DNA from: a virus | Taxonomy: Duplodnaviria; Caudoviricetes | Reading direction: 5' to 3' (one strand) | IMG/VR virus record: IMGVR_UViG_3300020577_012390 | Location: 1-64,000 of that record | Length of the DNA: 64,000 nucleotides | In this document: positions 11,297 to 60,596 of the stretch, in pieces | Layout: each line of letters opens with the position of its first letter | How positions within the stretch are numbered: position 1 is the stretch's first letter | The notes under the pieces: generated by a model | Databases searched by the model: none | Seen by the model: only the letters and a program-made list of their open reading frames with translations | What the model was told of the DNA's origin: nothing | Made by a program: the position numbers and the translations under genes

Positions 11297-12544
11297 ATGG
11301 ATATCGAGCGCGCGTTCATCACGAAACTCTGCCAGACCGGGGACATGCCTTCGGTCCAGAAAGATCGATTTACGGGCGAGGTTTTCATCGAGCCGGTCTA
11401 CACCGAGATTTATGGGTGGATCGATAAGCAGTACATCGCGACGGGTCAGGTTCCCTCGGTCGAGCTTTTGCGGGAGGAGTTCGAGGAGTTCGAGCCCGAA
11501 GAGTGCGACGACGAGATCCCCATTCTCGTAAATCGCCTCAACGAAAAACGGTTGTACGCGGAACTCGCGCTGGTTTCCAAAGATATCCGGATCAAGAGCA
11601 GGACGGACCCGAAGGATGCGTTGTCGTACGCCCAGAGCGCGATAACGAAACTCACCGTTACATATGACGCTCAGGGCGACGAGATCGACATCTCGAAGAG
11701 CGGGAGCCAGATCACCGAGCGGTACGAGCGGAACAAGAACTCGAAGGGCCTCCTCGGGTACCCCTTCCCCTGGGCCAGGTTCACCGCGATGACCCGCGGG
11801 GCGCGCGGGGGCCACCACCTCGGGTTCTACGGCGATTCGGGGTCGATGAAGACCTGGCTGCTGATCTACCTGGCGATATGGTTTATCAAGCAGCAGATTC
11901 CGGTAGTCCTGTTCACCAAGGAAACGCCGGTCGAGGATATCCAGAACCGCGCGGCGTCCATCCTGGCCGAGGTGGATTACGAGAGGTTCCAGGACGGTGC
12001 GCTGAACGAGGAAGAGGAGACCCGCTTCTATGACGCGATGGATTCTCTGGAACTCGAAAATGCACCCCTCCATATCATCGAGGTGATGGGGATGGGGGCG
12101 CACGCCCTAGCAGAAATCAAGAGCAAGATTTTCCTCTACGGGGCGAAGATCGCCATGATCGACAACCTGTATTACTACGCGGAGAATTTGGAGTGGCAGA
12201 ACTTCGGTATCCTCTGCAACGGTATCCGTCAGATGGCGAGGAAGGAGAAAATGCCGATCTTCTCTACGAACCAGACGAACAACGACAAGAAAGCGGGCGC
12301 CGGCTTCTCTGACGTCGGGTACGGGAAGGTCTACGCGCAAAGCTGTACGGAACTCATCCGGATCGTGCGCGAACCCATGCAGGTCGACCGGGAAGAACTC
12401 ATCCTCTGGACCAAGAAGCTCTCGGAGGGGAAACCCGGGCGGATCGCGATCAACGCCAAGCCTGGATACGACTTCTCCGAGAAGGCCATGATCGAGGACG
12501 GGGACCCTGCGGCGAGCGGAATTGACGACGCTGATATCACGTTA
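11297..12544 (+). CDS. dnaB: DnaB-like replicative helicase; ends at TTA
   Basis: P-loop GDSGSMKT, KETP..DIQNR, MIDNLY, STNQTN motifs; TTA 12542-12544 followed by GGAGG RBS and primase ATG (standard code would run 161 codons into primase). Confidence 0.85.
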
Positions 12545-12554
12545 GGAGGACACC

Positions 12555-13652
12555 ATGAGCACAGCGGACAAGATCAAGGGGTGGATGAGCGACGCGGGCT
12601 GCAAGGGGATTCGGGCGTCCAACGGAAATTGGGTCTCCACCTGCCCCTTCCACCGGGCGAAGGACGGGCTCCAGTTCGCGATGACGATGGATACCGGGCT
12701 CTATGTCTGTTACTCCGCGAAATGCGGCGCCCAGGGGAACCTGCTGACCTTCCTGATGGAAGGCGTGGACATGGAGCCGAAGCGGGCGATGGCGGAGGTG
12801 TCCAGCCTCGACCTCCAGGGGGCGATGTTCCTGGACGACGACAGCGATATTCTGCTGCCGAAATACGAAGACCGGCGCAAGAAAGACGGACCCGTCACCG
12901 ACCCCGTCCACGCGGCGCCGAACCCGCGGTACGTCCACCTCTGCGGGCGGTGGTGCCCCGACTTCCTCCTGAAACGGGGGTTCAAGAAAGAGGCGCTGCG
13001 CAGGTGGAGGATCGGGTTCGACCGTGAGGAGCAGCGGGTAACCATACCCGTTTATGACAGGGCCGATAAACTGATCGGTCTTTCGACCCGTGGGACCAGG
13101 AAGGACGACCCCCGGCCGAAGTACCTCCACCTCGACTTCCCCCGCTCGTCATACCTCTTCGGGGAGAACAGGATGATGAAGGGCCTCAACCGGGGGATCA
13201 TCGTCGAAGGGCAGCTCGACGCGGTCGCTATCTCACAGTTTTTCCAGAGCTACGAAAACCCTGAAGGTCGTCCCGAGGACCTCACCTACTTCGTGCCCCT
13301 CTCTACGATGGGGTCCCGGGTGAGCGCCCGCCAGATCGACAAGATGGCGGAGCTGGATATCGTTGTTCTGTGTTTCGATAATCCGGCCATCGACGAGGAC
13401 GGTCATCGGACCACCCTGTACGTAGGCGACCAGCTCCTCGCGAGGATGGGTCCTAGTCGGGTTTTCGTGGCTTCATTTCCGTCTGTCCTCCGCGAAGACG
13501 GGTCCGCGAAGCGCCTGAAAGACCCCGCAGAATTCCTGGAACACCCGGACTCCGACCGCCTGTTCCGGTACCTGCTCAACTCTCGGAATTTCGTCTATTA
13601 CGACGAGTGGAGCATTGAAAATGAAGTTTGCGTTTCCCGTGGGGGTCGATTA
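12555..13652 (+). CDS. dnaG: DNA primase (Zn-finger plus TOPRIM); ends at TTA
   Basis: CPFH...CYSAKC zinc finger, IIVEGQLDA and VLCFDN TOPRIM motifs; TTA 13650-13652 then AT-rich spacer. Confidence 0.85.
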
Positions 13653-13720
13653 GACTTTTATCTGGGTTTTGAACCCACCGAAAAAACGGCTTTACAGCCC
13701 TCTACGAAAGAACAAAACAC

Positions 13721-14680
13721 ATGGCGGGTATGCGCGGTTTGGCTGCTGTGCGGGCGTTGGCGGAAGCCAACAAGGGTGGGAAGTTCGTCAACGACTTCCG
13801 GCTCCAGGACAAGGAATCCGCAACCATCTGGTTCAACGGGACCAACGATGAGCCGCTCATCACGTATGAGCACACCTTCAAAAACGGTAACGACTTCAAG
13901 ACCATCACCTGCTCCTACCCGAAACCCTGCGTCGGGTGCTACTACCACGACCACGGGGACAAGCGGGTGGGCGCCAGGACGGCGAAGGCGGCGTTCAACG
14001 TGGCGGACACTCGCTACTTCCACACCGAGAAGGGGATGGGCCGGAACGGGAAGGAGCGCGACCTCTGGACCGAGTGCCCCGGCGAGGCGACCTGTAAGAA
14101 GTGCCGCAAGGGCGCGGAGCGGAAGATGGGCGGCCAGAAGCGGTGGGTGATGTCCCTCATGTGGGCGCAAGCCCTCGATGGGGCGTCGAAGACCGCGGGG
14201 ACCCGGTGCCGGGCGTGTAAGATCGGGAAAATTCGGGTGCTGAAATACGTCAACGACACTGGCAAAGAGGTGTTGGTGGACGACCCCAATAACCTGCCCG
14301 AGGGCGTGATCGAGAAACTGGCGTGCTCGAACAAGGCGTGTCAGGAGCCGACCCGGGCGACCCTCTTCGACGTGCCCTGGGACGTCACCCGGTCGGGGTC
14401 CCAGAAGAGCACGAGCTACCAGTTCGTCCCCGGGTCCTTCTCCTTCGAGGACCAGCCTGACGACGTCCTGGACCTCGAACCCCTCGACCTCGACGAGGCG
14501 TGCAAGCCCTACGGGACGGGCGCCCAGGCGAAGCGTCTGGGCATGAACGACCCCTTCGAGGGGATGGCGGAGGCTGGTGGTAGGAAGAATCTCAAGGACG
14601 CCAATATCACTGGCGATGACGACGAGGAGGACGAGGAGGAAGAAGAAGAGAGCGGAGCTACCCCCTTCGACGACGAGTTA
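13721..14680 (+). CDS. Single-stranded DNA-binding protein (gp32-like, Cys-rich); ends at TTA
   Basis: Between primase and polymerase; acidic tail ending ESGATPFDDE immediately before TTA 14678-14680. Confidence 0.6.
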
Positions 14681-14706
14681 CGCCTGGTTTACCGTTTCTC
14701 GGGGGG

Positions 14707-14735
14707 TTGAATTTCGGGGGGTTCTGGGGTATAAT
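14707..14735 (+). promoter_or_regulatory. Sigma70-like promoter
   Basis: TTGAAT-17-TATAAT upstream of polA. Confidence 0.65.
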
Positions 14736-14758
14736 TAGGGGGTAATCAAGGGAAAGCC

Positions 14759-16804: not shown

Positions 16805-17100
16805 AAATCCGCACTTTCGATAAACTCCCGATGAGGCCCTCCAAAGAGAAAGAGCGCGAAGACGATCTCAGGAGCAAAATCCGTGCGCGAGCGTGGACCC
16901 TTTGCCTCGAAGGGAAAGAGGATTTCAAGCGAGGGATAAACCGCAGGTCTTCTCCCTACCCTGTCGGTAGCGCGGACAGGGCCTCCTGGGTGTGGGGGTG
17001 GGATTGGGCCTATCATAATTGGGAATTTGAAATGAAGCGGAAGCGCGCTCTCGGGGATTACTCCGCGTGGCCGCAGCGGTGGAAGGGTCGGGACCGATGA
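16801..17100 (+). CDS. Hypothetical protein (ribosome-modulation-factor-like W-x-W-G-W tail)
   Basis: ATGA overlaps at both ends. Confidence 0.55.
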   Translation: MKIRTFDKLPMRPSKEKEREDDLRSKIRARAWTLCLEGKEDFKRGINRRSSPYPVGSADRASWVWGWDWAYHNWEFEMKRKRALGDYSAWPQRWKGRDR

Positions 17101-24558: not shown

Positions 24559-25371
24559 ATGGCGAATCCAGAGCGTGTGTTGCGGTGCCGGTTTGCGGTT
24601 GTCCAGGCGGCGTTGACCTTCGTGGGGCTGGGCCCCGACCCGGGGGAGGACAAGGAGGGGTACCAGGCGCGGATCTGGCCCAACGACACCCCCTTCGACC
24701 GGCGGGAGATGGCCCTCGGTCCGAAGAAGCAATACTCGTGCGCGATGACGTACGAGCAGGCGTGTCGGAAGGCGGGGTTCCAGTGGCCGATGGCGTGGAT
24801 GAAACACGACATCAAGGACGCGCTGGTCCTGTCGATGCGGGAGCGTCTGAACGGTTTCTCACCGCCGCTATATCCGGTGACGATGGGGAACGAGTTCTTC
24901 CGCCAGAAGGGGGGTTCGACCAACCTCACCCGGAAGACGTTCAGCCCTGCGGAGCGCGAGGAGTTCATCGCGAACGCGCTCCTGACGAAGGTTTTTCTGC
25001 CTGGGAATTTTCTCGTCCAGGGTCTCAAGCAGGGAGGACCTCCGGGGTCCGTCTGGGGGAAGAACACCTACAACGGCGAGCACGTCCAGATTTTCGAGGA
25101 ACTCGTGGAAATCGAGACGCTCGAAAACGGTGAGATCCATATCACCGCCTGGGTCATCGAGGGCGGCCAGCCGGGCGTGAAGCGGAACCTACGGCACTTC
25201 GTCATGACCCCGAGGGGCGAACTCTGGGCGACGAAAGACCGGCAGGACCTCGAAGGCGATGGTCGTCCCCATGTCGGCCGGCGTGTCTCGTTCATCGGGG
25301 ACCTGGGGAGCGGGGCCGTCTCGGACTGGTGGACCGACCTCTCCGGCGACGTGAGCCCCACGGGGGTTTTA
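24559..25371 (+). CDS. Hypothetical protein; ends at TTA (fused to QueD under the standard code)
   Basis: ATG 24559; TTA 25369-25371 lies 3 nt before the QueD ATG in the same frame. Confidence 0.6.
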
Positions 25372-26689: not shown

Positions 26690-26875
26690 ATGATAACGGT
26701 GACCATCAGGAACACGGAGACCGGCCGAGAAGAGACCTTGTCCGGTGAAGATGCTGTCGTGATCGTTGAAGGTCGCGGCGAAGCTGACGTCTACTCGACG
26801 AAGGGAGAGAGCGCGTGCCTCGAAGTTCTAAACGAAACGGTCGACGTGATCCGGCAGCGGTCCTCGCTTCACTAG
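26690..26875 (+). CDS. Small hypothetical protein
   Basis: GAGG RBS; overlaps folE start by 61 nt. Confidence 0.4.
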   Translation: MITVTIRNTETGREETLSGEDAVVIVEGRGEADVYSTKGESACLEVLNETVDVIRQRSSLH

Positions 26876-27435
26876 AGGAACATTTCCGGAAGTTTCTGGA
26901 GGAAGTCGGGGCCTTCAAAAACAATAGCCCCGAACTCGATATCGAGGGTACCCCGGCGAGGGTGGCCAAGATGTACGCGAGGGAACTCCTCGCTTCCTAC
27001 CAGGAGGGGGCGCGGGAAGAGTTTCTGGGGACGCTAAAATCCTTCAAACTCACGAAGGAGCCGGAGATGGTGGTGGTCCGCAAGATTCCCTTCAATTCCT
27101 TGTGCGCCCACCACCTCCTCCCCTTCCACGGGGAAGCCCATATCGGGTACGTCCCCACGACCCATCTTGCGGGCCTTTCTAAGTTTGTTCGGATCGTGAA
27201 TTACCATGCCGCGAAACTCCAGACCCAGGAATCCATGACCTCCGACATTGCTCAGGAGATCGAAGACTTCCTGAAGCCCGCAGGAGTGGGTGTGCGTCTG
27301 TCGGCGGTCCACCTGTGCATGTCCTGTCGGGGTGTCCGGGTGGCGGGTTCGGACACCCTGACGACGGCTCTCCGGGGAGTCTTCAAGGAGCCGAACGTGA
27401 AACAGGAATTCTACTCGCAACTTCCGATTTTGTTA
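26815..27435 (+). CDS. folE: GTP cyclohydrolase I; ends at TTA
   Basis: TPARVAK, SLCAHHLLPF, GLSK, QTQE, HLCMSCRGV; TTA 27433-27435 followed by a promoter. Confidence 0.9.
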
Positions 27436-39371: not shown

Positions 39372-40463
39372 ATGCCCAAAATCAAGAAAGAAGGGAAGGG
39401 GAACGGCCCCGACCTCTCGGACAAGATCAGCGAAGCCCTCCAAGGGAAGGACAAGAACCCCACCACCAAGAAGCTCTCCCTCAAGGACCTCAAAGCCCTC
39501 GGGGACAACAAGAAGACCAACCAGCTCCAGAAAGGGGGGCGGCGCGAAAAGGGCGCGTCAGCGCCCCAAGAAGGGGGGAGAAAAGAAAAGGAGAATAACG
39601 CTAACAGTAACGCTATCCCTTTCACTGATGAGGAGGAGAAGGACTCCGTAGAGAGCAGGGAAGGGGAAGACGGAGGGGAGAACACACAACAGGAAGAAGA
39701 CCCCCTGAACCCCACGGGCTACGTCCCACCCTCTCAAGTAGCTGAAATCGTTGAGGTTTCCCCGGAGGCTAATGGGAACTCAGAGCCCTCAGAATCGGTA
39801 TCCGTGGCTGTGGAGACCAGGGCCCCCCTCCCCATCCTGTCGGGTGCTGAACCCCCGGCCCATGTGAAGAAGGAGATGGCCAAGAGGAAGTCCCTCCCGG
39901 TCCTGGGATGCTCCTCCTGTCACATTGGTCAGTCCTGCCCCGAGTACAAGGAGGGGTATGTCTGCGCTTACAACGATGCTTTTGCGGCGTTTCCTGCGCG
40001 GGACGTGGACTCCGTGCTAACGGAAATGGCGGGTATAGTTTCGACAAACAAGGGCCGTCTGATGCGGGCGTACTACGCGGAGCAGCAGGTAAACGGCGGG
40101 GCTTTGGATATGAACGTCACCAGGCAGTCCCAGGTGGTGATGGACCAGATGAACCTCCTCCTGGCTCTCCATCAGGAGCAGAGGAAGGTCACGGTCACCG
40201 TCCACGGGCAGGGAGTGGCGAAACAACAAGGTCCAGGCATCCTTTCGCGTCTTTTCGCGAAGAATCCGGCCAATACACCCCCCTCCCCCACCCTGGAACT
40301 GAACGCTTCTCAGTCCGCGAACAACGGTACTGGACCTCTCCCACAGCAAGAGATCCCCGGTCTGTCCCCGGAGGCGATGGCTGAGATCAAAAAACTTGAG
40401 GACAGCCCTCCCCAGGACCCAGTTTCCGCGATCCCCGGGGGCCAGGCGGGCGGGTCCCCGTTA
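39372..40463 (+). CDS. Hypothetical protein with CSSC...CP...C zinc motif; ends at TTA
   Basis: Low-complexity A-rich N-terminal half; TTA 40461-40463 marks the start of the large non-coding region. Confidence 0.55.
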
Positions 40464-41640
40464 TCTATCTCCGGCCTTATGGGAAGGTCGATACTTTTCT
40501 CGGGAAAATGGCTCTGGGTTGAAGAGGGGTCCCCCCGTCCGATCACCCGCTTTTAGCGGAAAGTCAAAACCCGAATTACCTACATCCGGGGAGGGAGGGG
40601 GCGGGTTGTCCTACCTGGTAGGATAAGGTGCGAGTTTCTGCCCGGGTAACCCTCTCCCTGGTAGAGGGGCGGGGGCGTTATCCGGATAGCGTTTATCAGA
40701 TAGCGAATAACGTTATCCGGATAGCGGGTTTCCTATCCGGATTGACTATCAGGATAAACGTTTATCAATCGTTGATAAACATTACAAGAACCCACCTTGT
40801 CCTACAGGGTGCGAGTTTCTACTTGGTACCCCGGCGAGGGGGGTGTGGACCCTTGACCAGGTAAAGGTGTCTCGTGTGACCCTACCAGGGACCTCCGGGG
40901 AAGGGTCAACCCCCAGAACCGTTATTAGCGGGGCGTAAAACGGTACAGAACTCGTTTTAGGGGTCGGATGGGGGGTAGGGTGCGGAACGGTCCCGCGAAG
41001 CGTTTTAGGGTCGGTTATATTCGATTACCGAGAATCCATCCCACACTATCCTACCTAAAATTAGAAAGTTTCTAAAACCTATTGCGAGACGTGTCCGGGG
41101 GGTTTAGGTTCTGGTCTACCGAAGTTCAAGCGATTGAATAACGGTACTTGATCCTTCTCAACTAGACGCGGTTTCCACCCTTCGGGGTGGCGCGTCTCAT
41201 ACTGCGACCGGGGTAAGACCGAAACGGACACCACCCCAACCCAGAAACGTAACTGAACGGTACCCCCTTTCACTAGGGGGGCGAGTAAGTAACCAGGTAC
41301 GACCACGCGCGAAACCTGATACTGGGGAATCTCCTATCAAGAGTAGGTTATCGGATATGAGAGTCCGATAAACGAAAGAAAAGATAGGCGCGGTTTGATC
41401 ATTGACAACTAAAACGGAAGTAACGGGGTCTAATCTCAATTACCCCAGAGTGTTCCCCTCTATGAGGGCGTCACACGATAGGAATCACCCTATCAGGGAC
41501 ACACTTCCACCCCACCCATCGGGGTCAGCAGAAGACTAGAGCGGACAGATGGGGGTACCGGGTAAGACCCGGCCAAGCGTAAACGGTAGAGTCTCCTGTT
41601 AGGGGTGCGAAACCACCCCCTGACGTAACGGAGATTCAAA
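40464..41640. other. About 1.2 kb non-coding, lower-GC region rich in palindromes; candidate origin or genome terminus
   Basis: No credible ORF; TATCCGGATA at 40679 and 40714; GTTTATCAA-TCG-TTGATAAAC at 40760-40780; CCTACC-T-GGTAGG at about 40610-40622. Confidence 0.6.
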
Positions 41641-41958
41641 ATGGCTAAAAACAAGATTGTTTGTACCTGCGGCGGTTGGGAAAACAGCAAGGAACACACG
41701 GATTCCTGCCCGATTCGATACGTGACGATGTCCCCCTGGGAGATCGCTCGCGTCATCAAGGCGGACTGGAAAAAGCCGTACTTCGGTGCGGTTCCTTACA
41801 TCGAGGCGCTCGCGGCGATCAACGAGTGGGGCGACGCATACCTGTGCGAAACCTCGAACGACATCGCCATCGGGTTCCTCTCAAACGCCGCCACCTGGCG
41901 CGGTCCGGTCGCGAAAGCGGCCAAGATTGTGCTCGACGGGATTGTGGTGGCGTGGTGA
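41641..41958 (+). CDS. Putative early protein
   Basis: GTAACGGAGATT leader; KKPYFGAVPYIEAL...GFLSNAATWRG is a pattern common in small phage early proteins. Confidence 0.6.
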   Translation: MAKNKIVCTCGGWENSKEHTDSCPIRYVTMSPWEIARVIKADWKKPYFGAVPYIEALAAINEWGDAYLCETSNDIAIGFLSNAATWRGPVAKAAKIVLDGIVVAW

Positions 41959-42254
41959 AGCGGCACCCCCTCCTGTCCTATGCGTGTTCGGTCCTCGACT
42001 GCCCCGGAATCTCCGATTCCGATGGCGGTTACTGCGACCGCCATGTCGTCCGGAAGACCCGCAAGGTCTGTGTCCGGATGATCGTCCAGTTCGCCAACGG
42101 CGACGAGGTCTTCTTCCTCGCGCCGACGACCACGAAGACCTCCAAGGTCCTCGGGATCGCTCGGGGGATGAACCCCCTGAGTCGGCTTGAGAGTATCGCG
42201 ACCGATGGTTCCTGTGTGAACGTCGACATCGCTGACTTCAGAATCAAAAAGTTA
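41955..42254 (+). CDS. Putative early protein with Cys/His motif; ends at TTA
   Basis: GTGA-coupled; CSVLDCP...YCDRH; TTA 42252-42254. Confidence 0.55.
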
Positions 42255-42324
42255 GAAAACCCTTCGCACCCCTACCAGGGGACTCTACCGTAACCCAGGA
42301 TGCAGCGAAGTTACGGAGATTCAA

Positions 42325-43737
42325 ATGCCCAAGAACAAGAAGAACAACGGCTCCAAGAACGTCAACACCTCCAACAAGGTCGCGACCCCGGCCACCACGG
42401 AGACCCTCAAGGTCCCCCAGGTGATCCAGCCGGACGCGGGAAAGGAGGTGACGACGGAGAAGGCGCCGGAAGTGGTGGCGGTCCCTGCGGACCCGCCCAA
42501 GGCGGAGGTCGTCGCTGACCTGACTGCAACCTGGGTGGTGGATCTGAAGGCGTCGACTCTGAAGCCCGAGGACCTGGTGGCCGATAAGGAATATGTGATC
42601 GTGAAATGCGTTCACCTGTCCCCTCCCGGCCATTTCCCGGATATCGACCGGGACCTCTACACGGACGCGCCCGTCAAGGCGAAGTTCCTCCGCTGGGAGG
42701 AACTCTACATGGCGGGTACGGTGGGTATGACGCTCGACGGTGCGACCGAAGAGCAGAAGAAGACCATCGAGTCCGCGTACTCGAAGAGCCAGGTCGCGGT
42801 CTTCAACGATGGGAGGGCGGGTTACGCCATCCCGGCGTACGCGACCGTCCCTGCGTGCGACATCTCACTGCTCGTGTACCCCAACAACGAAGAGGGTCAC
42901 AAGCTCGCGTTCGACGCGGCGACCTTCTTCTCGGCGCGCAGCTTTTCCCTGGGTTGGACTGAGGAAATCAGCAACCTGAAACGCGAGATGTTGTTGTCCT
43001 CGGCCAACGTCCCCGAGATGACCGCGTGGTTGGGTAACCAGCCGATCTCGGTCCTCCGGAAGGCGTGTTCGGTCTGGGGCGGCAAGGTCAAGGAGGTCTT
43101 CAAGGAGGGGGTGACGAAAGAAGCCGCCCTCCCCATCGTTCTCGCTCTCCGGAACGAGATCACGAAGGACCCGAAGAAGGTGGAAGCCCTCGCTAAGAGG
43201 TACACCGAGACTAGGGCGGCCTGGGAGGCGTCGCGGAAGGCGTTCGATCAGCACCAGGTCGTTGCGATCTGGCGCGAGCGGGCGAAAGCCGCGGGGCGGA
43301 ACCTCAACCTCGCCAAGATGGAGGAAGAGGTCCGGATCGATGCGGTGAAAGCTGCCTCGGTCAAACTCGCGAAAGCGGCGGCGAAAACGCCCAAAGAGAC
43401 CGCGGTGAAAACCAACGGTCTGAACATCACGAACTTGCCCTCGGGCGAGGTTGCGGTGTCGGTCAAGGGCGGGAAGCTGACCATCGACCAGATGAAGGCG
43501 ATGATCCAAGCAGCGGACGCGAAGGTCGCGGCGGACAAGGCCAAGGAAGACGAGGCGAAGCGCGTCGCGGAGGCTGAGAAAGCGGCGGCGGAAGTCGCTC
43601 GGGTTGCGAAGGAGAAGGAAATCGAGGCGGCCAAAAACCCCGCGGTTCCCCCCGTCCTCGTGACCGACAACAGCCCGAAGAATGGGTCCACCACCCAGGC
43701 GAAGCCGAAGGTCAAGAACAAGACCGCGGCGAAGTTA
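42325..43737 (+). CDS. Large putative early protein, coiled-coil K/A/E-rich C-terminus; ends at TTA
   Basis: GTTACGGAGATT leader; TTA 43735-43737 followed by a long hairpin. Confidence 0.65.
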
Positions 43738-44784: not shown

Positions 44785-45339
44785 TAATTCGAGACCTGGA
44801 ATCAGGGTGAACCTGCCGGTGGGGAGACGGTCCAGGTTCCCGCCGACCACCTCCCCGGTCTCGTGGGACATGCCGTTGGAGGAGAAGACGACGGCGGTGA
44901 TGAGGGGGCCATCGGGACCTTGGAAGGCGTCCTGGGTGACGAGGCCGGGGTAACAACAGGAGGCGCCCACGCGGTCCCTGGTCCACCAGAGGACTCGGGC
45001 ACCCTTCTGGAGCTTGTCCGTATGGGGGTGCGGAAACGAGGCCAGGACCTCGCGGGGAGGGACGGGGGGCGGCTTGGCCACCTCGGAGACGGTGATCGGG
45101 GGCGTAGGGGCCGGCTGCGGGGCGTGGGAGGTGGCTTCCATGACGGTGGCGAGGACGCGGAGGGCTATGGCGTTCCAGACGGGGTCGGAACGGAGGATGG
45201 CCTCGGGGTTGTGGTCGTAGGGGGCGAAGAGGGCCCAGAGGGGGTGGCCGGCGTAGGACTCTGCGACCGCGGCGGAGACGATGGCCAGGGCGACCGTGTG
45301 AATGGTCGCGTCCGGGTGGAGGGCTGGCTTGGTGGTCAT
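44785..45339 (-). CDS. Hypothetical protein; ends at TTA
   Basis: GGAG RBS; minus-strand TTA at 44787-44785. Confidence 0.55.
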
Positions 45340-45356
45340 AGCGTTTATCAGGCTCC

Positions 45357-46004
45357 TAAATTCTTGGTCTTGTCGGGGGCGACCCAGGGCCCCTGAATGA
45401 TCTCGCCGCCGGGGGCGGGCGGGACCGCGGGGGGAGGAGTGCCGTTCTTGGCGACGGCGTCTGCGGCGATCTGGAAGAGCCCACGGATAGCGCCGAGGAC
45501 TTCCGGGGGGACGACGTTCTGAAGTTCCCGCTGCATCTCGGGCCACTCGTCGAGGGCGATGATGTTGTCGTGGCTCATGTCGTTCTCGTAGACGAAGGCG
45601 ACGCTCTCCAGGGCGATAGTGTTTATGCCGCCGTTCAAATTCCCATACGGAAGGGTGATCGCCTCCGTGATGGGGCTGAAACGGTGGACCCGGAGGGAGA
45701 CCCTGGGGGTGCCCACCGCGTCGGGGGCGTAGAGGGCGGGGATGTAGAGCACGATCTCGGTGGGGACCGGGTAGAACGCGATCTGATCGAGGCTCTTCCT
45801 CCCGGCGGCCTCGGACTCCGGGGTGTTGGGGACGATGGCGCGGGTCAGGACACAGGCCAGCCCCTTGATGCCGATGGTCGTGTGGAAGGAGTGGCACGGG
45901 ACGAGTTCGAGGTTCCCGCGGGTCATGGGGCCGTTATCGTTTATCAGCTTCCGATAAACCATGAAGCGGAAGGCGGGGTACCCGATGAGCTGGCTCTGTT
46001 CCAT
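45357..46004 (-). CDS. Hypothetical protein; ends at TTA
   Basis: TTATG-coupled start; TTA 45359-45357 followed by GGAG RBS of the next gene. Confidence 0.6.
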
Positions 46005-46636
46005 AACCGCTTCCCCGGGTGGGTGGACGCGACTCCGGTGCTCGACTTGTAGAGCTGGGTGGACCGGATGAGGACCTCCAGCCAAGCCGACTTGTCCATC
46101 TTACCGAATTTCCCGGCCTCGATTTTCATCAAGGTTTCGTCGGCCCCTTCGGGGATCTGAATGTGGTACATGGCGTCGTTGTCCAGCCACTCTTCAGCCA
46201 CCTCGACCTGGGCGTAGGGGATGGCCCAGGACTCGGTGGTGTGCTGGTCGTTGGCGGTGTCGAGGAGATCCAGGGGGAAGAGGAGGATCTGCTCGGGCTC
46301 GTCGAACCCCAAGCACTTCGTCCAGTAAGTGAACTTGCGAATAACCAGACTCGGGCGCTGGCCGGTCCACCCGGCGTAGGTGTAGACCCGGATCTTCTGG
46401 CAGCTCTCCAGGACCTTGCGCAGGGCCTTCTCCCTCGTCTCTGGGGTGCAGCACTGGTCCCCCATGGCGTTCATCCCCACGTACTGCTGGCTCGTGAGCT
46501 TCAGGTACCGGCGGTTCCCGAACCAGATGGCCTCCAGGCGGTTGACTCCGAGGTCGGTCGTGGTCCCCGCGCCATCGTCAGCGACGATCTGGAAACGGAA
46601 CGTCGAAAATCCGGCTTTCATTTCTGCGATCTTCAC
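46004..46636 (-). CDS. Hypothetical protein; ends at TTA
   Basis: TTA 46006-46004 overlaps next ATG. Confidence 0.6.
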
Positions 46637-46650
46637 GGCTTCTCTCCTTG

Positions 46651-47337
46651 TCAGCAGCGGCGGTCACAGAAGATCCGGAGGCGATCCTCGTTGCCGCGGA
46701 AACGGTTCACGTCCACGTCCCCGACGATGCCGGGGACCTTCCCCGTCCTCGAAAACTGCCAGAAGTCCCACCCCTCGGGTTGAGACATCGGGCGCTTCCA
46801 CGCGGCGGGGAGCAGCGGGGAAGGTTCCTGCGTGTGATGGGCGACCCAGAGCGGGCACTCGTCGAAGGACCGGCTCTTGACGTAGGTGTCCCAGGTGCCG
46901 ACGTTCGTGTAAATGATCGGCGGAATTCCGATAGCCCCCCGAATGATCGACACCCACTCGTAGATTTTGGCCACCATCTCGACGGGGGTGAGCATCGTGC
47001 GGGAGTCTTCGTACTTCTCGACGTCGAGCACCGGAGGGAGGGTGCGACCATCGGCGGAGGAGGCGGGGTCCCCGATGGCTTCGAGGACCATCCGGGCCTG
47101 GGCGGCGACGTCCTGGTGAACGTCGAAGTATTGGTAAATGCCGGTGGTGAATTTCGGGTCCGCTGCCCTGGCGTTGATCCAGTTCTCCTCGAAGAGCTTG
47201 TCCCTCCTTAGCCCATCGGAGATCCGGATGAAGGCGAACTTGATTTCGCCGCCCGAAATTACCCGTTTCCAGTCGATGATCCGCTGCCAGACCGAAACGT
47301 CGATGCCCTTGACGAAGTCGTTGCTCATACCGGACAT
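46651..47337 (-). CDS. GH25 muramidase (endolysin)
   Basis: GIDVSVWQ, FAFIRISDG, GIYQYF, LPPVLDVE (DxE), IIYT, PLWVAHH, WQFSRTGKVPGIVGDVDVN. Confidence 0.9.
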   Translation of the reverse strand: MSGMSNDFVKGIDVSVWQRIIDWKRVISGGEIKFAFIRISDGLRRDKLFEENWINARAADPKFTTGIYQYFDVHQDVAAQARMVLEAIGDPASSADGRTLPPVLDVEKYEDSRTMLTPVEMVAKIYEWVSIIRGAIGIPPIIYTNVGTWDTYVKSRSFDECPLWVAHHTQEPSPLLPAAWKRPMSQPEGWDFWQFSRTGKVPGIVGDVDVNRFRGNEDRLRIFCDRRC

Positions 47338-47373
47338 CGTACCACCCCATCCCTTCAGCTCCCCAGCGGGGGG

Positions 47374-47799
47374 TAAGCGGCCGCTCTTCTTCGCGCGGTC
47401 CCTCTCGGTCTTCCCCGGGTGCCTCGGAGGACCACCTCGACCCCCACCCTGAGCCAGGCTTGCGCGGCGTTCGTCCATCGCGGCGCGGGTCTCCAGCCAT
47501 TCGGCCTGATCAGCGCGACCTGCGGCGACGACCCACTCCTTCGCCTCGGTCAACATCTCGATGGCCATGTCGAGGGTTTCGGAGTTCATCTCCGCGGGGA
47601 TGTTGCCCTGGAACTTCACCTCGATGAAGCTGGAAATATCTCCGGTGACTTTCTTGTAACCCATCCGGAAGCTGTACTTCCGGCGAGAGGGGAGTTCGAG
47701 ACGCTGGACCGTCACCACCAGCTCGCCCCTCTCTACCCGATGGACCTCCTCCCAGTTCAGCCGGGGTTTACCATCAGGGGTCATGTTATTTGTCGACAT
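47374..47799 (-). CDS. Hypothetical protein; ends at TTA (fused to GH25 under the standard code)
   Basis: TTA 47376-47374, then a 36 nt spacer and the lysin ATG in the same frame. Confidence 0.6.
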
Positions 47800-51106: not shown

Positions 51107-51916
51107 ATGGCGACGGTCTTTTTCTCGGGCGGCATCGACTCCACCACGCTCGCTTTTGACGTGGCGAAAAACCCCTGGAGGTACGGCATCTCTCCGAAGA
51201 CGGAGGATTTCCGCCTCCTGACCGCGTACATGGGGAAGGAGAAGCCGGCCCACCTCGGCAGGCTGGCGACGAAGATCCGCGAAGAGGCCGAGTGGACGGA
51301 GTTCGCCGGGTTCTCCCACGAGTTCGTGGACGCCACGAGTCTATTCGATTTTCAAAAGTCGGATATCCCGCATGGGGGCGCGGGGACGATGACTCCCCTG
51401 TCGACGAAGTACCAGCCGGATCTCCAGTCGATCTCCTACGCGCCGGGCCTCCACACCCTGCTGGCCACCGTGGCGTACAACCGCGAATGGTTCGGTAGGA
51501 GTCTGTCCGCCTTCAGCGACCCCCAGGCGTTTTTCGGGTTCCAATACGACGGCCCGATCTGGAACGAGGTGGACAAGGGGACCGTGACGCCGAACGACGT
51601 CTCCCCCGATTATATCGCGGCCCTGAATACCCTGGTGAGGGTGTCCGGACCCCGTCCGGGGGTGCGGTTCCGTGCGCCGTTCCTGGAGAACCGGATGGAT
51701 CGGGTTCATATCCTGGAATTGGCCATCACAATTGGCGTTCCGCTCACCTGGACGAGTTCCTGTGAGCAGGGGTGGATGGTGAACTGCGGGTACTGCGGAC
51801 AGTGCCTCCGGAGGATGAAGGCGAGTTCGTACCTGGAAGACGCCATGAAGACGTTCTTGAAGAAGCTGGAAGACAAGAAAGCGGCGGAGAAAGCCGCGAA
51901 GAAGGGTAAGAAGTTA
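51107..51916 (+). CDS. Divergent QueC-family PP-loop ATPase; ends at TTA
   Basis: FSGGIDSTTLA PP-loop; SSC-x6-CGYCGQC zinc motif; TTA 51914-51916 overlaps the queC ATG. Confidence 0.7.
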
Positions 51917-52584
51917 TGAAGCCGAAATACACTGTGGTCCTCTCCGGGGGACAGGACTCGACCACCTGCCTGTATTGGGCGCTCGACAAGGGCGTCGATG
52001 TTCAGGCCGTGACTTTCCACTACGACCAGCGCCACGACACCGAGGTCGAGGCGGCGAAGCGGATCGCTGCTCACGCGGGGGTCCCCCACACCGTCCTGGA
52101 GGTCCCCGGCCTCGGGGTTGCGGGGAAGGGGTCGTCCCTCACGCGGGACTTGCCGCTGGACCTCGATGGGGGGTTCCAGGGGCTCCCGTCGTCCTTCCTC
52201 CCTGGCCGGAACCTGGTCTTCCTGTCCCTGGCGGCGGCGTTCGCCATCCCCCGGAACTCCTTCTACCTCGTCACCGGGGTCTGCCAGACGGACTACTCGG
52301 GGTATCCGGACTGCCGGCGGTCGACCATCGACGCGATGGAGAAGGCCATCAACCTCGGTAACGATCTTCACGGCTTCAAAATCGATACCCCCTTGATGCA
52401 CCTGACGAAGGCGGAGACGGTCCGCCTCATGAGGGGGTTCGGGAACCAGGCGTGGGAGGCGCTAGGGATGTCGATCACCTGTTACGAGGGGAAGCACCCG
52501 GGGTGCGGCGCGTGCGCGGCGTGCGTGCTGCGAAAAAAAGGTTTTTCGGAAGCTGGACTTGGTGACCCTGCGGAGGACAACTGA
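51916..52584 (+). CDS. queC: 7-cyano-7-deazaguanine synthase
   Basis: LSGGQDSTTCL, YDQRH, PGRNL, YSGYPDCR, TPLM..TKAE, CYEG...CGACAAC. Confidence 0.95.
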   Translation: MKPKYTVVLSGGQDSTTCLYWALDKGVDVQAVTFHYDQRHDTEVEAAKRIAAHAGVPHTVLEVPGLGVAGKGSSLTRDLPLDLDGGFQGLPSSFLPGRNLVFLSLAAAFAIPRNSFYLVTGVCQTDYSGYPDCRRSTIDAMEKAINLGNDLHGFKIDTPLMHLTKAETVRLMRGFGNQAWEALGMSITCYEGKHPGCGACAACVLRKKGFSEAGLGDPAEDN

Positions 52585-52586
52585 TT

Positions 52587-53168
52587 ATGAAAAGCTACGA
52601 ATCTCTTACGTTCAAGGGTGAGAAGGAAGTCAACGGCCCGGAGGGGTCTTTCGTCATCGTCGAGGGCGAGGACGGCAAGAAGTACAAGATGGTGAGGGAG
52701 GCGCTTCAGTCTCTCGTCGAGGAGACTCAGCCCACGAAACCCCACGGGGCGCGCGGGCTCGACACCTTTCCGGCTCCCTCGAACATGCAGGTGATCGATT
52801 TTCACCTCCCCGAATTCACCTGTCTCTGCCCCAAGACCGGGCAGCCTGACTTCGCGAGTTTCAAGCTCCGCTACATCCCCGACGAGAAGGCGGTCGAGTC
52901 GAAGTCGCTGAAGCTGTACCTCTGGTCGTTCCGCGACAAGGGCTGCTTCCACGAGAAGGTGACGGAGACGATCTACCAGGACCTCCTGACCGCGCTCGCC
53001 CCTCGATGGTTGCAGCTCATCGGGGAGTTCAACGTCCGGGGCGGCATCTACGAGAAGGTGGCGCGGGAGTGGCTGTCCACCGAGCTTCTTTTCGCGGGGT
53101 CGAATGGGCACTCGACCAATTCGCGGACACTCGAACGCCTCGTCGCGAGCTACCGTATCCAGTTTTTA
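52587..53168 (+). CDS. queF: PreQ0 reductase (unimodular QueF); ends at TTA
   Basis: EFTCLCPKTGQPDFA, QueF signature ESKSLKLY, FHE, FNVRGGI; TTA 53166-53168 followed by GGGGAG RBS and the terminase ATG. Confidence 0.9.
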
Positions 53169-53183
53169 GGGGAGCGAAAAACA

Positions 53184-55082: not shown

Positions 55083-55532
55083 ATGCGCGACACCGTGACC
55101 CTGAAGCAGTTCCACACCCCCTTCAACAGCGCGTCGATCCGGAAGCTGCTTGGTCAGCTCTTCCGCGCGTCGTCCGAGCAGGAGACGGCCGCCTCCGGTT
55201 CCCTGGCGATCATGGCGGGTGGCATCGCGCGTCACAAGGGGACGGTCCAGGACATCTGGCTCGTTTCCGGCGCGGCGTGCGCGGCCGGCGAGTCGATGAC
55301 TTTTGACGTCCTGAAAAACGGCACGTCGATCCTCATCGGGGTCTACACCCTGGACTCGACGAAGCCCAACAAGGAGCCGATCTCCCTTCTGTCCCTCCTC
55401 GACCCGACGAAGGCCGACATCACCTGGGGCGACAAGCTGGAGGTCACCCGCGTCTATACCGCGGGCGGCGGCCCCACCCCCCTGGTGAACACCCGTCTCG
55501 ACGTCGAGTGGGCGCCGAACCAGGACAGTTTA
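55083..55532 (+). CDS. Putative virion protein; ends at TTA
   Basis: GGAGA RBS; beta-rich; TTA 55530-55532. Confidence 0.55.
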
Positions 55533-55567
55533 TCGGAGCCTGATAATCGGTAAAGAAGGAGTCCAAG

Positions 55568-55792
55568 ATGGCAGATCCAGCGAACCCCGGAACCCAGCCC
55601 CAAGGGAACACCCTCTGGGGTCTGATCCGGGTTGGCGGTAACAGCAGCCAATTCTCGTTCCCCCGGGAGCAGATGTCCCTCGCGGACTCCTTCGCCCAGG
55701 GTGTCGGGAAGGCCCACAACGGGGTCCAGTACGCGCATTTCGACATGCGAAATTACGCGCGGACCGCCGGAACCCCCAGCGGGAGGAAGTTA
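55568..55792 (+). CDS. Small hypothetical protein; ends at TTA
   Basis: AGGAG RBS; TTA 55790-55792 lies 2 nt before the next GTG. Confidence 0.55.
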
Positions 55793-55794
55793 CC

Positions 55795-56253
55795 GTGTTT
55801 CGGGTACGCTATTACGATAAGGTATTTCACCCTGACGAGTTCAAGGGTGGCCTCGGATGGTGTATCCGCGCGGTGAATTGGGTCCGCTGGAGAGTCGAAG
55901 TGGTCGTCCAGTACCTCGTGCTCCGGTACCTGGCGGGTCAGGACAAGACCTTGCCGAAGACCGAAGTGAGCAAGCTCCTCCAGTCGTTCAGGCGCGACGT
56001 TCGGATCGAGACGCTCCAAAGGGAGACCACCTCACCCCTCCTGGCGCCCCCAAACGAACCTGTTTTTCAGGGCGGTAAAATCGCTCCGTCGGTCATCGCG
56101 GAGCCTCTTCCCGTGGACAGCGGAAGGCCGTCACCCATCCTCGGTCTCGTCGAGAGGTACGGCCATGGGTCCAGGTCGAAGCGATACTCCCGAGGCCGCA
56201 ACTTCTCAGTCGGTAACCCGGATGGGGATTTTGAGCCGGTCGATAAACAATGA
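55795..56253 (+). CDS. Hypothetical protein
   Basis: GGAGG RBS. Confidence 0.5.
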   Translation: MFRVRYYDKVFHPDEFKGGLGWCIRAVNWVRWRVEVVVQYLVLRYLAGQDKTLPKTEVSKLLQSFRRDVRIETLQRETTSPLLAPPNEPVFQGGKIAPSVIAEPLPVDSGRPSPILGLVERYGHGSRSKRYSRGRNFSVGNPDGDFEPVDKQ

Positions 56254-56534
56254 ACTCGAACGACGTCACAGGTATCGGCACATGGGCCCTCGAACACGGT
56301 GTTTCGGGAGTTCTATTTGTCTCTAACGCGCTCTGGGTCTACCTCTATCTGCGCGAGCGCGGCATCACGAATAAGACATTTCAAGAGCTTCAAAAGAGCC
56401 AGAAAGAGCGTCTCTCCGCTGAGCAGGCGAACTCCGCCGCTCTTCTTCGCGTCCACGGGGAGGTCGGGAAGACGGTCGCTACGCTGGGGAAGATGGTCGA
56501 TTTTCTCGACAAGAACGTTGAGAGGTTCACATGA
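56250..56534 (+). CDS. Single-pass membrane protein, holin-like
   Basis: N-terminal TM (GVSGVLFVSNALWVYLYL) followed by a coiled-coil. Confidence 0.5.
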   Translation: MNSNDVTGIGTWALEHGVSGVLFVSNALWVYLYLRERGITNKTFQELQKSQKERLSAEQANSAALLRVHGEVGKTVATLGKMVDFLDKNVERFT

Positions 56535-56803
56535 GCTTGACCATGACCAGGCCGGCTCTCCTATCGCGGGAGGAAGTCAAGGGCACAAAAACTCTCCGCG
56601 AAGCAGACCAGGAGGCGGTAGCCATGGAACGGAGCGCGCGACAGCGCCTCGAAGAGGTCTCGGGTAAGGCGATCCGAGACAAGGCCCGGGGGATCATCAA
56701 GAAGATCGACCCGGAGTTCGAGGACGAACACGCTACCTCCCCGGATATGCAAATCTCCGAGGTGGTGGTCCGGAAGGATGAGAGGAAGAATGGCCCTCCT
56801 TGA
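56531..56803 (+). CDS. Small hypothetical protein
   Basis: ATGA-coupled. Confidence 0.5.
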   Translation: MSLTMTRPALLSREEVKGTKTLREADQEAVAMERSARQRLEEVSGKAIRDKARGIIKKIDPEFEDEHATSPDMQISEVVVRKDERKNGPP

Positions 56804-57068
56804 AGGAATTCAAGACCCGACTCTCCGTAAGCTCGTCGATGCCCTGAAGGACTCGACGCTTCTACCGGATGATTCCGTCCCGGCCGGGTTCCTCGATGGG
56901 GGTTCCCGGCTGACGACCATTTCGGCGGACGAGGTCGAGATCCGCATCCACGTCCTCCCCGGCGGGGTAGCGGCTAGGATCTCTATCGAGCCCAGGGGTT
57001 CCACCAAGGGTGTGAAGGGTATTCAAGGCTTGATAAACCTCTCTGTTCTCTCAACGAAACTGGTGTGA
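56790..57068 (+). CDS. Small hypothetical protein
   Basis: GAGG RBS. Confidence 0.5.
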   Translation: MALLEGIQDPTLRKLVDALKDSTLLPDDSVPAGFLDGGSRLTTISADEVEIRIHVLPGGVAARISIEPRGSTKGVKGIQGLINLSVLSTKLV

Positions 57069-57069
57069 C

Positions 57070-57357
57070 ATGCCCGCAGCGACCTTCGCAGGAACCATCG
57101 ACGAGAAAACGGTACCCACCTCGACCGCTGAGGCGATCTACACCGGAGGCGGAGGGATCACCGCGACCGATGGCGTTCTCGTGCAAGCCCCTTCGGGGAA
57201 CACGGCCTCGATCTACGTTGGTCCCTCGGGGGTGACCATCCAGAACGGCATCGAGATCACCCCCGGAGCGGCGATCTTCTTGCCGATCACAAATCCAGCC
57301 GCGATTTACGTCATATCGGTGTCCGGAAGCCAGAAGGCGAGGGCGGTGGCCATATGA
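57070..57357 (+). CDS. Small beta-rich putative virion protein
   Basis: VLVQAPSGNTASIYVG; paralogue of 60615-60893. Confidence 0.6.
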   Translation: MPAATFAGTIDEKTVPTSTAEAIYTGGGGITATDGVLVQAPSGNTASIYVGPSGVTIQNGIEITPGAAIFLPITNPAAIYVISVSGSQKARAVAI

Positions 57358-57875
57358 TCGTCTTCTATCCGAAACCGATCCCCGGCCGCCCTGGACCTCG
57401 GGGAGATTCGGTGGTGGTCCCTGGAGGCCCGCCCGGTACCCCCGGAACCAACCTGGTCCCCTTCCGCCTGGTCTACCCGGCGAGCGCCATCGTCGTCGTG
57501 GACGGGCTCTCGGGGTTCACCCGGGTCGGGGCGATCCCCTTCGACCCTTCGGTGCTCTATCAAGGAGCAACCGTTGTTCGGCGTCTGAAATTCCAAACGG
57601 CAGCCGAGGTGACGTTTGGGGTGACGGCGGAGATCACGCTCTACGATCCTGCGGCGGGGGCATACATCGCGGGAAGCACCGTCACGGTGACCTCGACTAC
57701 CCCGGTCGTGCAAGAGACGTCGGAACTTGTCCCTGGCGGAGCCTCTACGTCGGTCAAACTCTCCGCAAAAATCTACGAAGTCCACGCGCGAATTACGGTT
57801 CCGGGGAGCCCTGTCCCTGGGGATCTCGTGCGGGTCTTTAGCCACAACATCATCGCGGATTTCACCGCTTCATTA
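57354..57875 (+). CDS. Putative virion protein with GPRG/GPPG repeats; ends at TTA
   Basis: TTA 57873-57875 followed by GAAGGA RBS. Confidence 0.55.
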
Positions 57876-57888
57876 GAAGGATAAAGAG

Positions 57889-59073
57889 ATGGCCGGGACT
57901 CCTCATGGTTACGTGGATGGCGGTGGTACGAGCCAGGAGAACTGGAAGCACGACCACGACTTGTTCACCAGGCTCTACAAGTTCTTCTCCACCTCCTCAC
58001 GCCACGCGGTCATCGCCTACAACAAGGGTCTGACCGGCGGTAACGTCGCGGCGGCGACGCCGGGGACCGACTTCTGGGATGGAGCGAACCCCTTCGGGAG
58101 GCAAGCATGGTTTTTGGTGCGTTTCACAAACGCTGCCAAGGTGTTTTACATCCTCTTCGAGTATTACGACGGCTCCTTGGTGACCGCGCAGTACGGAGGG
58201 GTTATCAGGGGCTCGACCTTTGTAACCTCCTCCGGTGTCGCGTTCCAGTGCGTTGCGGCTCTCGATTCCGGGGGCGTGGCGGCGAACCCTTTCCAGGGCA
58301 CCATGGTCAACACCGGGTCGGACACCCGGCCGACTGGTGTGTGGTGGGCTCCCCCTGGTGGCGGGAAGCTGTTCATGACCCCGAGGTCGAACGCCCTTGG
58401 CGGGACCTGGGCGACGAACAAGAACAACATGCGGTTCCTGCCGCAGAACTCTTCTCCGACCTCCGTGGCGGTGAACCGCTGGTCCTTCGGGGCGACCGAC
58501 GACGCCTTCTGGATGACTTACGACGCGGGCGACAACGGCCTCGACCACTTCACCTACATGGGCCTGTACGCCCCGAGGTCCGACGTCACGAGCGACATGC
58601 CACTCTGTATGGTGTCGGAGTATAACGCGAGTGACGCCTTCAATTTCAACGGGATGTCCAACGCCAGTCCCACGATCTTCGGAGGCGCCACCACGGGGGA
58701 CCCCTATGACGATGGCGGGGTTCACGGCTCGACACCGATGGTGGGCGCGTCTTCGAGCCTGGTCTACGACTGCGTCGTAGGCGGGAACCTCATGCCGTTT
58801 GTCACGAACGCGAATCTCCTCCAGAACAAGGCGCTAGCCGTCCCCTCGAACGAAGAATGGCCGATCTTCATCGGGGCGTACGAGTCTTCGGCGGCCTTCG
58901 GGATGTTGGGGTACCTCGAACAGGTCCGCATCGTGACCGGGGTGAACAACAAGGATACGAACCAGGGAAAAACGCGAGCCTACTTCATGGGGGCGGGTCC
59001 TCACGCGCACGCGATCCCCTGGGATGGGGTGACCACCCCCGGGACCTCGGTGGGCCGCGGCGTGGCGTTCTGA
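57889..59073 (+). CDS. Putative virion structural protein (G/N/T-rich)
   Basis: Composition and position between terminase and portal. Confidence 0.55.
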   Translation: MAGTPHGYVDGGGTSQENWKHDHDLFTRLYKFFSTSSRHAVIAYNKGLTGGNVAAATPGTDFWDGANPFGRQAWFLVRFTNAAKVFYILFEYYDGSLVTAQYGGVIRGSTFVTSSGVAFQCVAALDSGGVAANPFQGTMVNTGSDTRPTGVWWAPPGGGKLFMTPRSNALGGTWATNKNNMRFLPQNSSPTSVAVNRWSFGATDDAFWMTYDAGDNGLDHFTYMGLYAPRSDVTSDMPLCMVSEYNASDAFNFNGMSNASPTIFGGATTGDPYDDGGVHGSTPMVGASSSLVYDCVVGGNLMPFVTNANLLQNKALAVPSNEEWPIFIGAYESSAAFGMLGYLEQVRIVTGVNNKDTNQGKTRAYFMGAGPHAHAIPWDGVTTPGTSVGRGVAF

Positions 59074-59083
59074 GAGGTTTATC

Positions 59084-59359
59084 ATGGCCCTAAAAGACGT
59101 AAACCAGATCCCTATCGGGGCCTTCCCTCAACCGGCCCTTTCGGTCGTTCGTCTTCGGGCGGTCCCCGTGGCGACCTCTCCTGCGCAGCCCTCAATCCCA
59201 ACCCCGGCCACCTACAAGATGAGGGGTCGTGATGTTGATTGTGGAACGCTGACTTACCGTTACTGGACCGCTACCGGGTCCCCCGACTATACGGGCGCTC
59301 AGTACGCGGGCGCGAAGTGCGGCGCGAGCCCCCTCGCGGACATAATTCGGATCACTTTA
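59084..59359 (+). CDS. Small hypothetical protein; ends at TTA
   Basis: GAGG RBS; TTA 59357-59359 then an A-rich spacer. Confidence 0.5.
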
Positions 59360-59388
59360 GAAACGCTCAAAAACGAAAGAGAACCACG

Positions 59389-60108
59389 ATGGCGAACCTG
59401 TTCCACACCAGCATGAGCGCGAAGGCGGCGACCTTCTTCTCCACGCTCTTCCAGATGATCGGAGTTTCGACCGCCGATATGTCCAGGTCCAAGGGGGTGG
59501 GGGTCACCCTGAAGTGCCTGGACGGCGACGCGATCACCGCAGAGATTCAGCCCCTCGACCAGGGGAACATGATCCGCAAGCTCGTCGAGTCCGGGTCCCT
59601 GGTGGTCCCCTCGGGCGGGGCTGCCGATCTCGATGGCGACGTCGGGACCGCAACCCTGGTGGCCTCGACGGTGGACGTCACGGTCCCCGGGGGAGTCCCC
59701 GTGGGGTCGCTGGTCTACGCGATTGCGACCACCCCGGCGGGGGTCCAGAAGCCCCTCGCGGCGGTCCGTAAATCGGCCACCGAAATCACGATCTCCTCCG
59801 CGGGGTCCGGGTTCGGTGCCCTGCTGGACAGCGCGGGGGTGAGCGGGGCCCTGACGGCGGGGGTGAACGCGGCGATTGCCCTGGAGAACGTTGCTGGGGA
59901 CCTCCTCGCGGTGAAGGAGACCGCGGCGGCGGGTTCGGCTGCCGACCACTTCTCGGTCGTCCGGGTCGACAACAGCAACGTGAAAGTTCAGGCGCACAAC
60001 TCCGCGGGCGCCCTCGTCGCGGGGAACACCTCGACGGTCAAGGTTTACAACCTCGGCCAGGCCGGTCACGATACCTCCCTGGTCCGTTGGGCGGTCGTCC
60101 GCCCCTTA
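59389..60108 (+). CDS. Putative virion decoration protein; ends at TTA
   Basis: C-terminal VRVDNSNV...NTSTVKVYNL shared with next gene; TTA 60106-60108. Confidence 0.55.
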
Positions 60109-60134
60109 TTCGGTTTTTAGAAAGGCCAAAAACG

Positions 60135-60596
60135 ATGATCCACAAGTTCAACTCCTCCTTCTTCGCCACCCGCGTCCAGCGGACCCTCGCCCTCATCGCG
60201 GGGCTCTTCAACCTCGACCTGAACCTGAAGAACGCCCGCAACGTCAAGATCACCATCGAGACGCGCGACGGCCAGGGGATGTACTGCCAGGTCGACTCCG
60301 ACGATGGGTGCGCGCGGTCCACCCCCGACTTCGCGCCGGCTGTCCCCGTCACCTGGACCCCGGGGGCGCTCACGGCGGGCGTGAAGAGCGACTTCTCCGT
60401 CAGCAACGCCGCGGGGGACCGTCTGGTGGCCCGCCTCGTCACCCCCGGAGGCAACCCGGCGGACTACTACGTGGCGACCCGCGTGGACAACAGCAACGTG
60501 GCGGTGACCGCCTACAAGCGGACCTCCCCCGGCGCGGCTGCTGTCGTCGAGACCGGGGACACCTCGACGGTCGAGGTCGCGAACCTCAAGCAGTTA
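60135..60596 (+). CDS. Putative virion decoration protein, paralogue; ends at TTA
   Basis: TRVDNSNV...DTSTVEVANL; TTA 60594-60596. Confidence 0.55.

Follow-up and report, generated by a model that had tools for sequence, protein, structure and literature searches.

Evidence for TTA as a stop codon in a wastewater-type phage and in a clade of Polyangiaceae

The DNA analysed here is a 64,000-nucleotide window, positions 1 to 64,000 of an 85,395-bp virus record (IMGVR_UViG_3300020577_012390; Duplodnaviria, Caudoviricetes); gene tallies cover all 85,395 bp. The record belongs to a wastewater-type phage with a guanine-plus-cytosine (GC) content of 61%, many of whose genes end at the leucine codon TTA. 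To judge from the sequences, TTA is a gene end both in this phage and in one small, uncultured clade of the bacterial family Polyangiaceae (Myxococcota), tRNA-Leu(UAA) is missing from that clade, and release factor 2 (RF2) is most likely the factor that reads UUA. We propose that the host provides UUA as a fourth stop codon, and that the phage infects this clade with its altered RF2 and no tRNA-Leu(UAA); we put the probability of this reading at roughly 0.76.

Genes were called with a self-trained caller that permits TTA as an end. Among 115 phage genes, 55 end at TGA, 41 at TTA, 12 at TAA and 6 at TAG, and one is open. The TTA ends account for 36% of the genes and occur on both strands (four on the minus strand) and in every gene class. 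TTA is terminal and is not read as an amino acid inside phage genes, in which TTG (179), CTA (35) and TCA (67) are kept as ordinary codons. The dinucleotide TG directly follows TTA in 13 cases, 9 of which were called as -1 overlaps with the next start codon.

Comparison with homologues places protein ends at these codons. For the 26 TTA-ended genes that have homologues, no alignment continues past TTA, the lone apparent crossing being a match to the next in-frame gene. The homologue end lies within 5 residues of TTA in 19 of the 26, and related phages carry ordinary stops at the corresponding places. Orthologues of four TTA-ended genes in the block at 55083..60596 end within 0-3 residues, at TGA, TAG or TAA, and the Pfam GTP cyclohydrolase I domain of FolE spans residues 21-202 of 206. 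When genes were called under translation table 11, the coding score collapsed 3' of TTA except at six same-frame starts of a next gene and in one short minus-strand open reading frame, which is probably spurious. Read-through of the DnaB-like helicase gene would append 160 codons lying over the primase gene. All TTA positions named in an earlier note on this DNA are in-frame TTA codons at gene ends.

The same note had described TTA stops as evenly spread over early, middle and late genes. They are indeed present in all gene classes, but the evenness was overstated: 21% of the genes of the replication block end at TTA, as do 33% of those in the small-gene block and 38% of the structural genes, and the share peaks at 63% just after the non-coding region (chi-square p=0.02). 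With timing judged by position, TTA ends are therefore not concentrated in late genes. The TTA ends of the two putative early genes, which are likewise called early from their position, were confirmed (Table 1), and the richness of TTA in this block helps the argument that termination at UUA works from the start of infection.

The TTA stop is not shared by the phage group as a whole, because relatives at 76-79% major capsid protein (MCP) identity read TTA as leucine (61 in-frame TTA codons in relative G003 and 3 in G001) or, in the part of relative G002 that was examined, have no TTA. Since close relatives use TTA as leucine, the switch would be recent within the group. A second phage, L332, has an endolysin 70% identical to that of the present phage, and its gene after the endolysin also ends at TTA. 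The closest cultured phages are remote (Bacillus phage BCD7, 50% capsid identity).

No release factor was found in the whole phage genome by Pfam or by a custom RF1/RF2 hidden Markov model with filters off, and no tRNA or transfer-messenger RNA (tmRNA) at default thresholds. The earlier note had recognised neither a release factor nor a tRNA in the window and had suggested searching for release-factor homologues elsewhere; its statement thus holds over the whole genome. A relaxed ARAGORN run on the phage gave five sub-threshold matches in coding regions, none of them for leucine.

A Polyangiaceae clade with TTA gene ends

We scanned metagenomes and 185,579 species genomes for a TTA behind the fixed C terminus of ribosomal protein L14. 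One metagenome contig (L063) has TTA at the ends of L14, L24, L5 and S8, and two of these ends overlap the next ATG. The species genomes yielded one true TTA-stop genome, the metagenome-assembled genome (MAG) Polyangiaceae STL-MYX17 (G006), in which the TTA of L14 overlaps L24. This MAG (61% GC, 408 kb) has 19 in-frame TTA codons in 109,072 codons, almost all terminal, along with 285 CTA codons; other Polyangiales at 58-63% GC have 5-19 TTA per 6,000 codons, mostly internal. A scan of the species genomes for S7 followed by TTA returned 0 matches.

RF1 of G006 is normal. In its RF2 the conserved serine behind the SPF loop is replaced by alanine; this residue is E. coli Ser216 by alignment and, by count, Ser204 in the numbering of PMC12574857. 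All clade RF2 sequences with a readable motif have Ala216, and the clade RF2 also carries Asp143Gly at the tip of helix 5 and Leu201Phe (E. coli numbering). Asp143 is a residue that we take to contact the second base of the stop codon. Gly138, Ser205 and the adjacent Thr have been placed at the codon (PMC5776981). The 39 RF2 sequences of the clade sit on a long stem with a support of 100, and as a set the three changes are clade-specific. This signature was found in 8 of 383 Polyangiaceae species genomes, seven of which (those with ribosomal-protein data) form one clade together with L063 in a ribosomal-protein tree (99.8/100).

Ser216Ala alone was rejected as a sufficient marker. Among 251 genomes of the order, a tally that includes the unpublished genome G133, on which no claim depends, 99 have Ser at position 216 and many have Ala or Gly, and many of these Ala/Gly genomes keep tRNA-Leu(UAA) and internal TTA codons. 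One Ala216 genome, G011, in which internal TTA codons are still present, has a tRNA-Leu-like gene of the UAA type that reads TTA at the anticodon position (G011:C18:356423-356444). The codon-reading motifs of RF2 are unusually variable in Polyangiales, with Ser216 changed to Ala or Gly, Glu140 changed to Asp, and an SPF-N variant loop.

Ribosomal-cluster stops are TTA in 27 of 126 cases in seven clade genomes, in contrast to 0 of 119 in six control genomes. The TTA ends of the clade fall at fixed C-termini, for example those of S11, L5, L18, L14 and S8; in G240, RpoA and L17 also end at TTA and TAA is absent from that cluster. Searched for by pattern, tRNA-Leu(UAA) was present in none of the eight clade MAGs, which are incomplete, versus 10 of 12 controls, and the other four leucine tRNAs are present in 7 of the 8. 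The tmRNA tag ends Ala-Ala-TTA in all four tmRNA genes found, an end that ARAGORN reads through under the standard code. That the tag itself ends at TTA favours genuine termination over the rescue of stalled ribosomes. In total, about 255,000 clade codons contain 38 in-frame TTA. The unrecognised TTA-stop bacterial lineage that the earlier note had pointed to is thus found in one Polyangiaceae clade with TTA gene ends, no tRNA-Leu(UAA) and an altered RF2, and this clade almost certainly uses UUA as a stop.

Other products of the scan were set aside. The Chloroflexia MAG LS1_sbin.36 was rejected as a second lineage, its L14 ending TTA-TGA and its tRNA-Leu(UAA) being present. Contig L066, which joins an actinobacterial-type operon to an L063-like end, is chimeric and was not used. 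Of the remaining L14 pattern matches, most seemed to lie in error-rich contigs with false indels or in unrelated genes. In contig L076 (Ga0074604_1082899; 44% GC), the TTA of L14 lies two bases before the L24 start, but there is a TTA inside L24, and the TTA end is probably an error.

Host assignment and alternative explanations

The phage very likely relies on the code of its host. That this host lies in the Polyangiaceae clade is likely, because the two share a rare code (TTA stop, TTG leucine, TCA serine) and a similar GC content, and because no other such lineage appeared in two scans of 185,579 species. The TTA share of the phage, 36%, is nearer to that of host ribosomal genes (up to 35%; 4/5 in L063) than to the host average.

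A stepwise history could account for these features. Ser216Ala would have arisen early and been tolerated while the tRNA was present, an order that we infer, and TTA would have become rare under high GC. tRNA-Leu(UAA) would then have been lost and RF2 altered further, so that an RF2 with Asp143Gly, Leu201Phe and Ser216Ala would release at UUA as well as at UGA. TTA could next have been adopted as a stop, chiefly in highly expressed genes. The phage would have purged internal TTA and come to a TTA stop rate like that of the host's highly expressed genes, and it would depend on the host's factor as soon as its genes begin to be translated. We regard it as fairly likely, taking all parts together, that the clade has a four-stop code with UUA preferred in highly expressed genes and tmRNA, that RF2 changed in steps, and that this phage and others unrelated to it have adapted to the code.

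Several observations weigh against a host-supplied stop or against this host. The 36% TTA share of the phage exceeds the 5-7% of the two best-sampled host genomes. The host prediction that the earlier note had proposed gave nothing to tie the phage to the eight clade MAGs: no spacer-like or prophage DNA match was found for window positions 5,900-64,000 against all eight, or for the rest of the genome (bar 1-5,900) against five, MAGs often being without CRISPR arrays, and codon-usage distance does not single out the clade. A terminase search gave no phage-clade link, and no host link emerged from a lipoprotein family search across 383 genomes, from the names of endolysin and lipoprotein homologues, or from Atlas taxa. 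On the bacterial side, about five clade TTA codons have a coding-like continuation. Because the clade genomes are related, their tRNA and stop counts reflect a single event and not eight independent ones. Finally, in contig L055 (Ga0316187_10106904; GC 65%), positions 18-47, the TTA of L14 overlaps L24, and this contig branches outside the Polyangiaceae; it could represent a second lineage or be an error.

Contig L055 bears directly on the best-surviving alternative, a host from a different, independent TTA-stop bacterial lineage. The missing direct link between phage and clade also favours it, as do the MCP family relatives of the phage, which span 45-67% GC and have distant cultured hosts in three phyla. 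However, the case of L055 depends on a single codon of a single contig, the only true TTA-stop genome from the L14 scan lies in the clade, and the S7 scan gave none. We therefore consider an independent lineage unlikely.

It is very improbable that a factor encoded by the phage or packaged in its virion, either a release factor or a tRNA-Leu nuclease, imposes the UUA stop in a standard-code host. Many phage genes are without annotation, so that an unrecognisable factor is conceivable, and the leucine reading of TTA in close relatives at 76-79% MCP identity, which makes the switch recent, also counts in favour of such a factor. Against such a factor, the genome has no RF1/RF2 homologue, the clade RF2 signature is absent from all 2.9 million viral contigs searched, TTA ends are most frequent in the putative early block, and a host lineage with the code exists. 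The first two of these findings leave the packaged factor, an alternative offered in the earlier note, unsupported.

UUA might instead be unassigned or hungry, leading to stalling, frameshifting or rescue, or be ambiguous between leucine and stop, and so not be read by a release factor. Intermediates of this kind are conceivable given the many Ala216/Gly216 Polyangiales that keep tRNA-Leu(UAA) and internal TTA, and beyond some of the phage TTA ends a standard stop follows at a distance of 0-6 codons. We nevertheless give this explanation very little weight: the ends of L14, S8, S11, L5, L18 and the tmRNA tag are at TTA, where tmRNA rescue would destroy essential proteins, and the TTATG overlaps resemble TGATG coupling. 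Lastly, a sequencing artefact in which a miscalled modified G turns TGA into TTA, a thought raised by the 7-deazaguanine genes of the phage, was rejected as having next to no chance, because 178 internal sites that would become stops under the same miscall are intact, two independent assemblies, one from JGI and one a Logan contig, match the phage at 100% identity over 21 kb and 5.5 kb, respectively, a strain of 96% identity has retained its three TTA ends, and bacterial chromosomes have the same pattern.

Gene features and composition of the phage

Under a host-supplied UUA stop, the genes in Table 1 take the extents given there. The phage encodes an N4-gp56-type capsid protein, a sheath protein, DNA polymerase, DnaB and primase, and a 7-deazaguanine pathway comprising folE, queD, queE, queC and queF together with a TGT-like gene.

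Table 1. Coordinates in the window of TTA-ended genes and landmarks of the phage
Feature	Position	Strand	Remarks
Putative tail-fibre-region gene, 1070 amino acids	1731..4943	+	TTA 4941 overlaps next ATG (TTATG); function by position; no PHROG match
DUF932 gene	10186..11187	+	Ends at TTA; homologue end 1 residue from TTA
DnaB-like helicase	11297..12544	+	TTA 12542; three homologues end -2 to +3 residues
DNA primase	12555..13652	+	TTA 13650; homologues end +3; read-through would append 165 codons
Probable single-stranded DNA-binding protein, acidic tail	13721..14680	+	TTA 14678; identity inferred; no profile match
Gene without assigned function, not FolE	24559..25371	+	TTA 25369; in frame with QueD (25375-25746)
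FolE (GTP cyclohydrolase I)	26815..27435	+	TTA 27433; homologues end +4
TGT-like gene, probable DpdA	39372..40463	+	TTA 40461; phrog_887
Non-coding region	40464..41640		Reference point for the putative early genes; no clear strong site in a promoter scan
Two putative early genes	41952..43737	+	TTA 42252 and 43735
Cassette with GH25 endolysin	44785..47799	-	Endolysin ends at TGA, other four genes at TTA
QueC-like gene	51107..51916	+	TTA 51914; TTA-TGA end overlaps second queC start
QueF	52587..53168	+	TTA 53166; in frame with terminase (53184-55016); relatives have two genes
Gene block	55083..60596	+	TTA ends 55530, 55790, 57873, 60106, 60594

Further observations concern individual genes. The DNA polymerase A at window 14759-16804 has Gln for the usual Glu in motif A (DMSQIQLR). 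Two putative early genes have an identical 13-nt leader before the start codon, at window 41628 and 42313. The QueC-family genes stand in tandem at window 51107-52584, and the pair is conserved in relatives L015-L017. In another relative, L029, a LAGLIDADG endonuclease gene lies directly behind the capsid gene (2963-3514).

The composition of the genome is unusual in other respects. The 4-mer TTAA is absent from the whole phage genome (0 seen, 47 expected from 3-mers), and NTT codons followed by AAN codons number 0 versus 69 expected. Several related phages with the standard code are also without TTAA (L020, 0/15; L021, 1/20), and the 4-mer is possibly avoided on account of an MseI-like enzyme of the host or a phage nuclease. 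AGA is almost unused (10-12) versus the common AGG (264-273), and the GCA/GCG ratio is 0.04 despite a GC content of only 61%. Because the last ~100 bases of the record repeat the first ~100 with a few mismatches, the record probably represents a complete circle cut open inside a tail gene.

Relation to known codes and consequences

Known code variants of bacteria include TGA=Trp, TGA=Gly and sense-to-sense changes of arginine codons. The proposed code resembles them as a lineage-wide change accompanied by loss or alteration of a decoding component; to our knowledge, none of them makes a new stop codon. In Streptomyces, TTA is an internal leucine codon read by the regulated tRNA bldA. There, as here, TTA is a rare codon with a special role in a GC-rich genome; unlike in Streptomyces, TTA is terminal in the clade and the phage, and the tRNA is missing.

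The mitochondrial code of Labyrinthulea (Thraustochytrium) is NCBI table 23. A UUA stop has been published for these mitochondria and for peDinoflagellate plastids, the plastid case being called the first sense-to-stop change outside mitochondria in a 2025 paper, and a change of Ser204 in RF2 is reported in both organellar lineages (PMC12574857). The parallels are close: UUA passes from leucine to stop, the conserved Ser204 of an RF2-type factor is changed to Ala, Gly or Cys, and the standard code yields apparent gene fusions. In contrast to the organelles, the present case concerns a phage and a clade of free-living, high-GC bacteria, with UCA kept as serine and UUG as leucine. Moreover, the Ser-to-Ala change alone is common in standard-code Polyangiales, and the clade adds Asp143Gly and Leu201Phe.

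As in stop-recoded phages (TAG=Gln or TGA=Trp; crAss-like and Lak phages; PMC7886860, PMC8346664), a non-standard code here breaks ordinary gene calling. Unlike those phages, this phage shows a change from sense to stop, has no tRNA or release factor of its own, uses the new stop in all gene classes and is matched by a bacterial code. A literature search, whose reach excluded most subscription papers, found no UUA-stop code in bacteria or phages.

If our reading is true, the Polyangiaceae clade would be the first bacteria known to turn an amino-acid codon into a stop. A bacterial UUA stop needs a new translation table, and current annotations would hold false extensions and fusions such as QueF-terminase, RpoA-L17 and S11-S4. 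The origin of a new stop codon would become testable, since the Ala216/Gly216 neighbours that read TTA as leucine look like natural intermediates. The clade also offers named candidate residues in RF2, an organism recoded by nature and a host marker for TTA-stop phages. The code would, if correct, form a two-way barrier: phages with TTA as leucine would terminate early in the clade, and in other hosts 41 gene ends of this phage would be read through.

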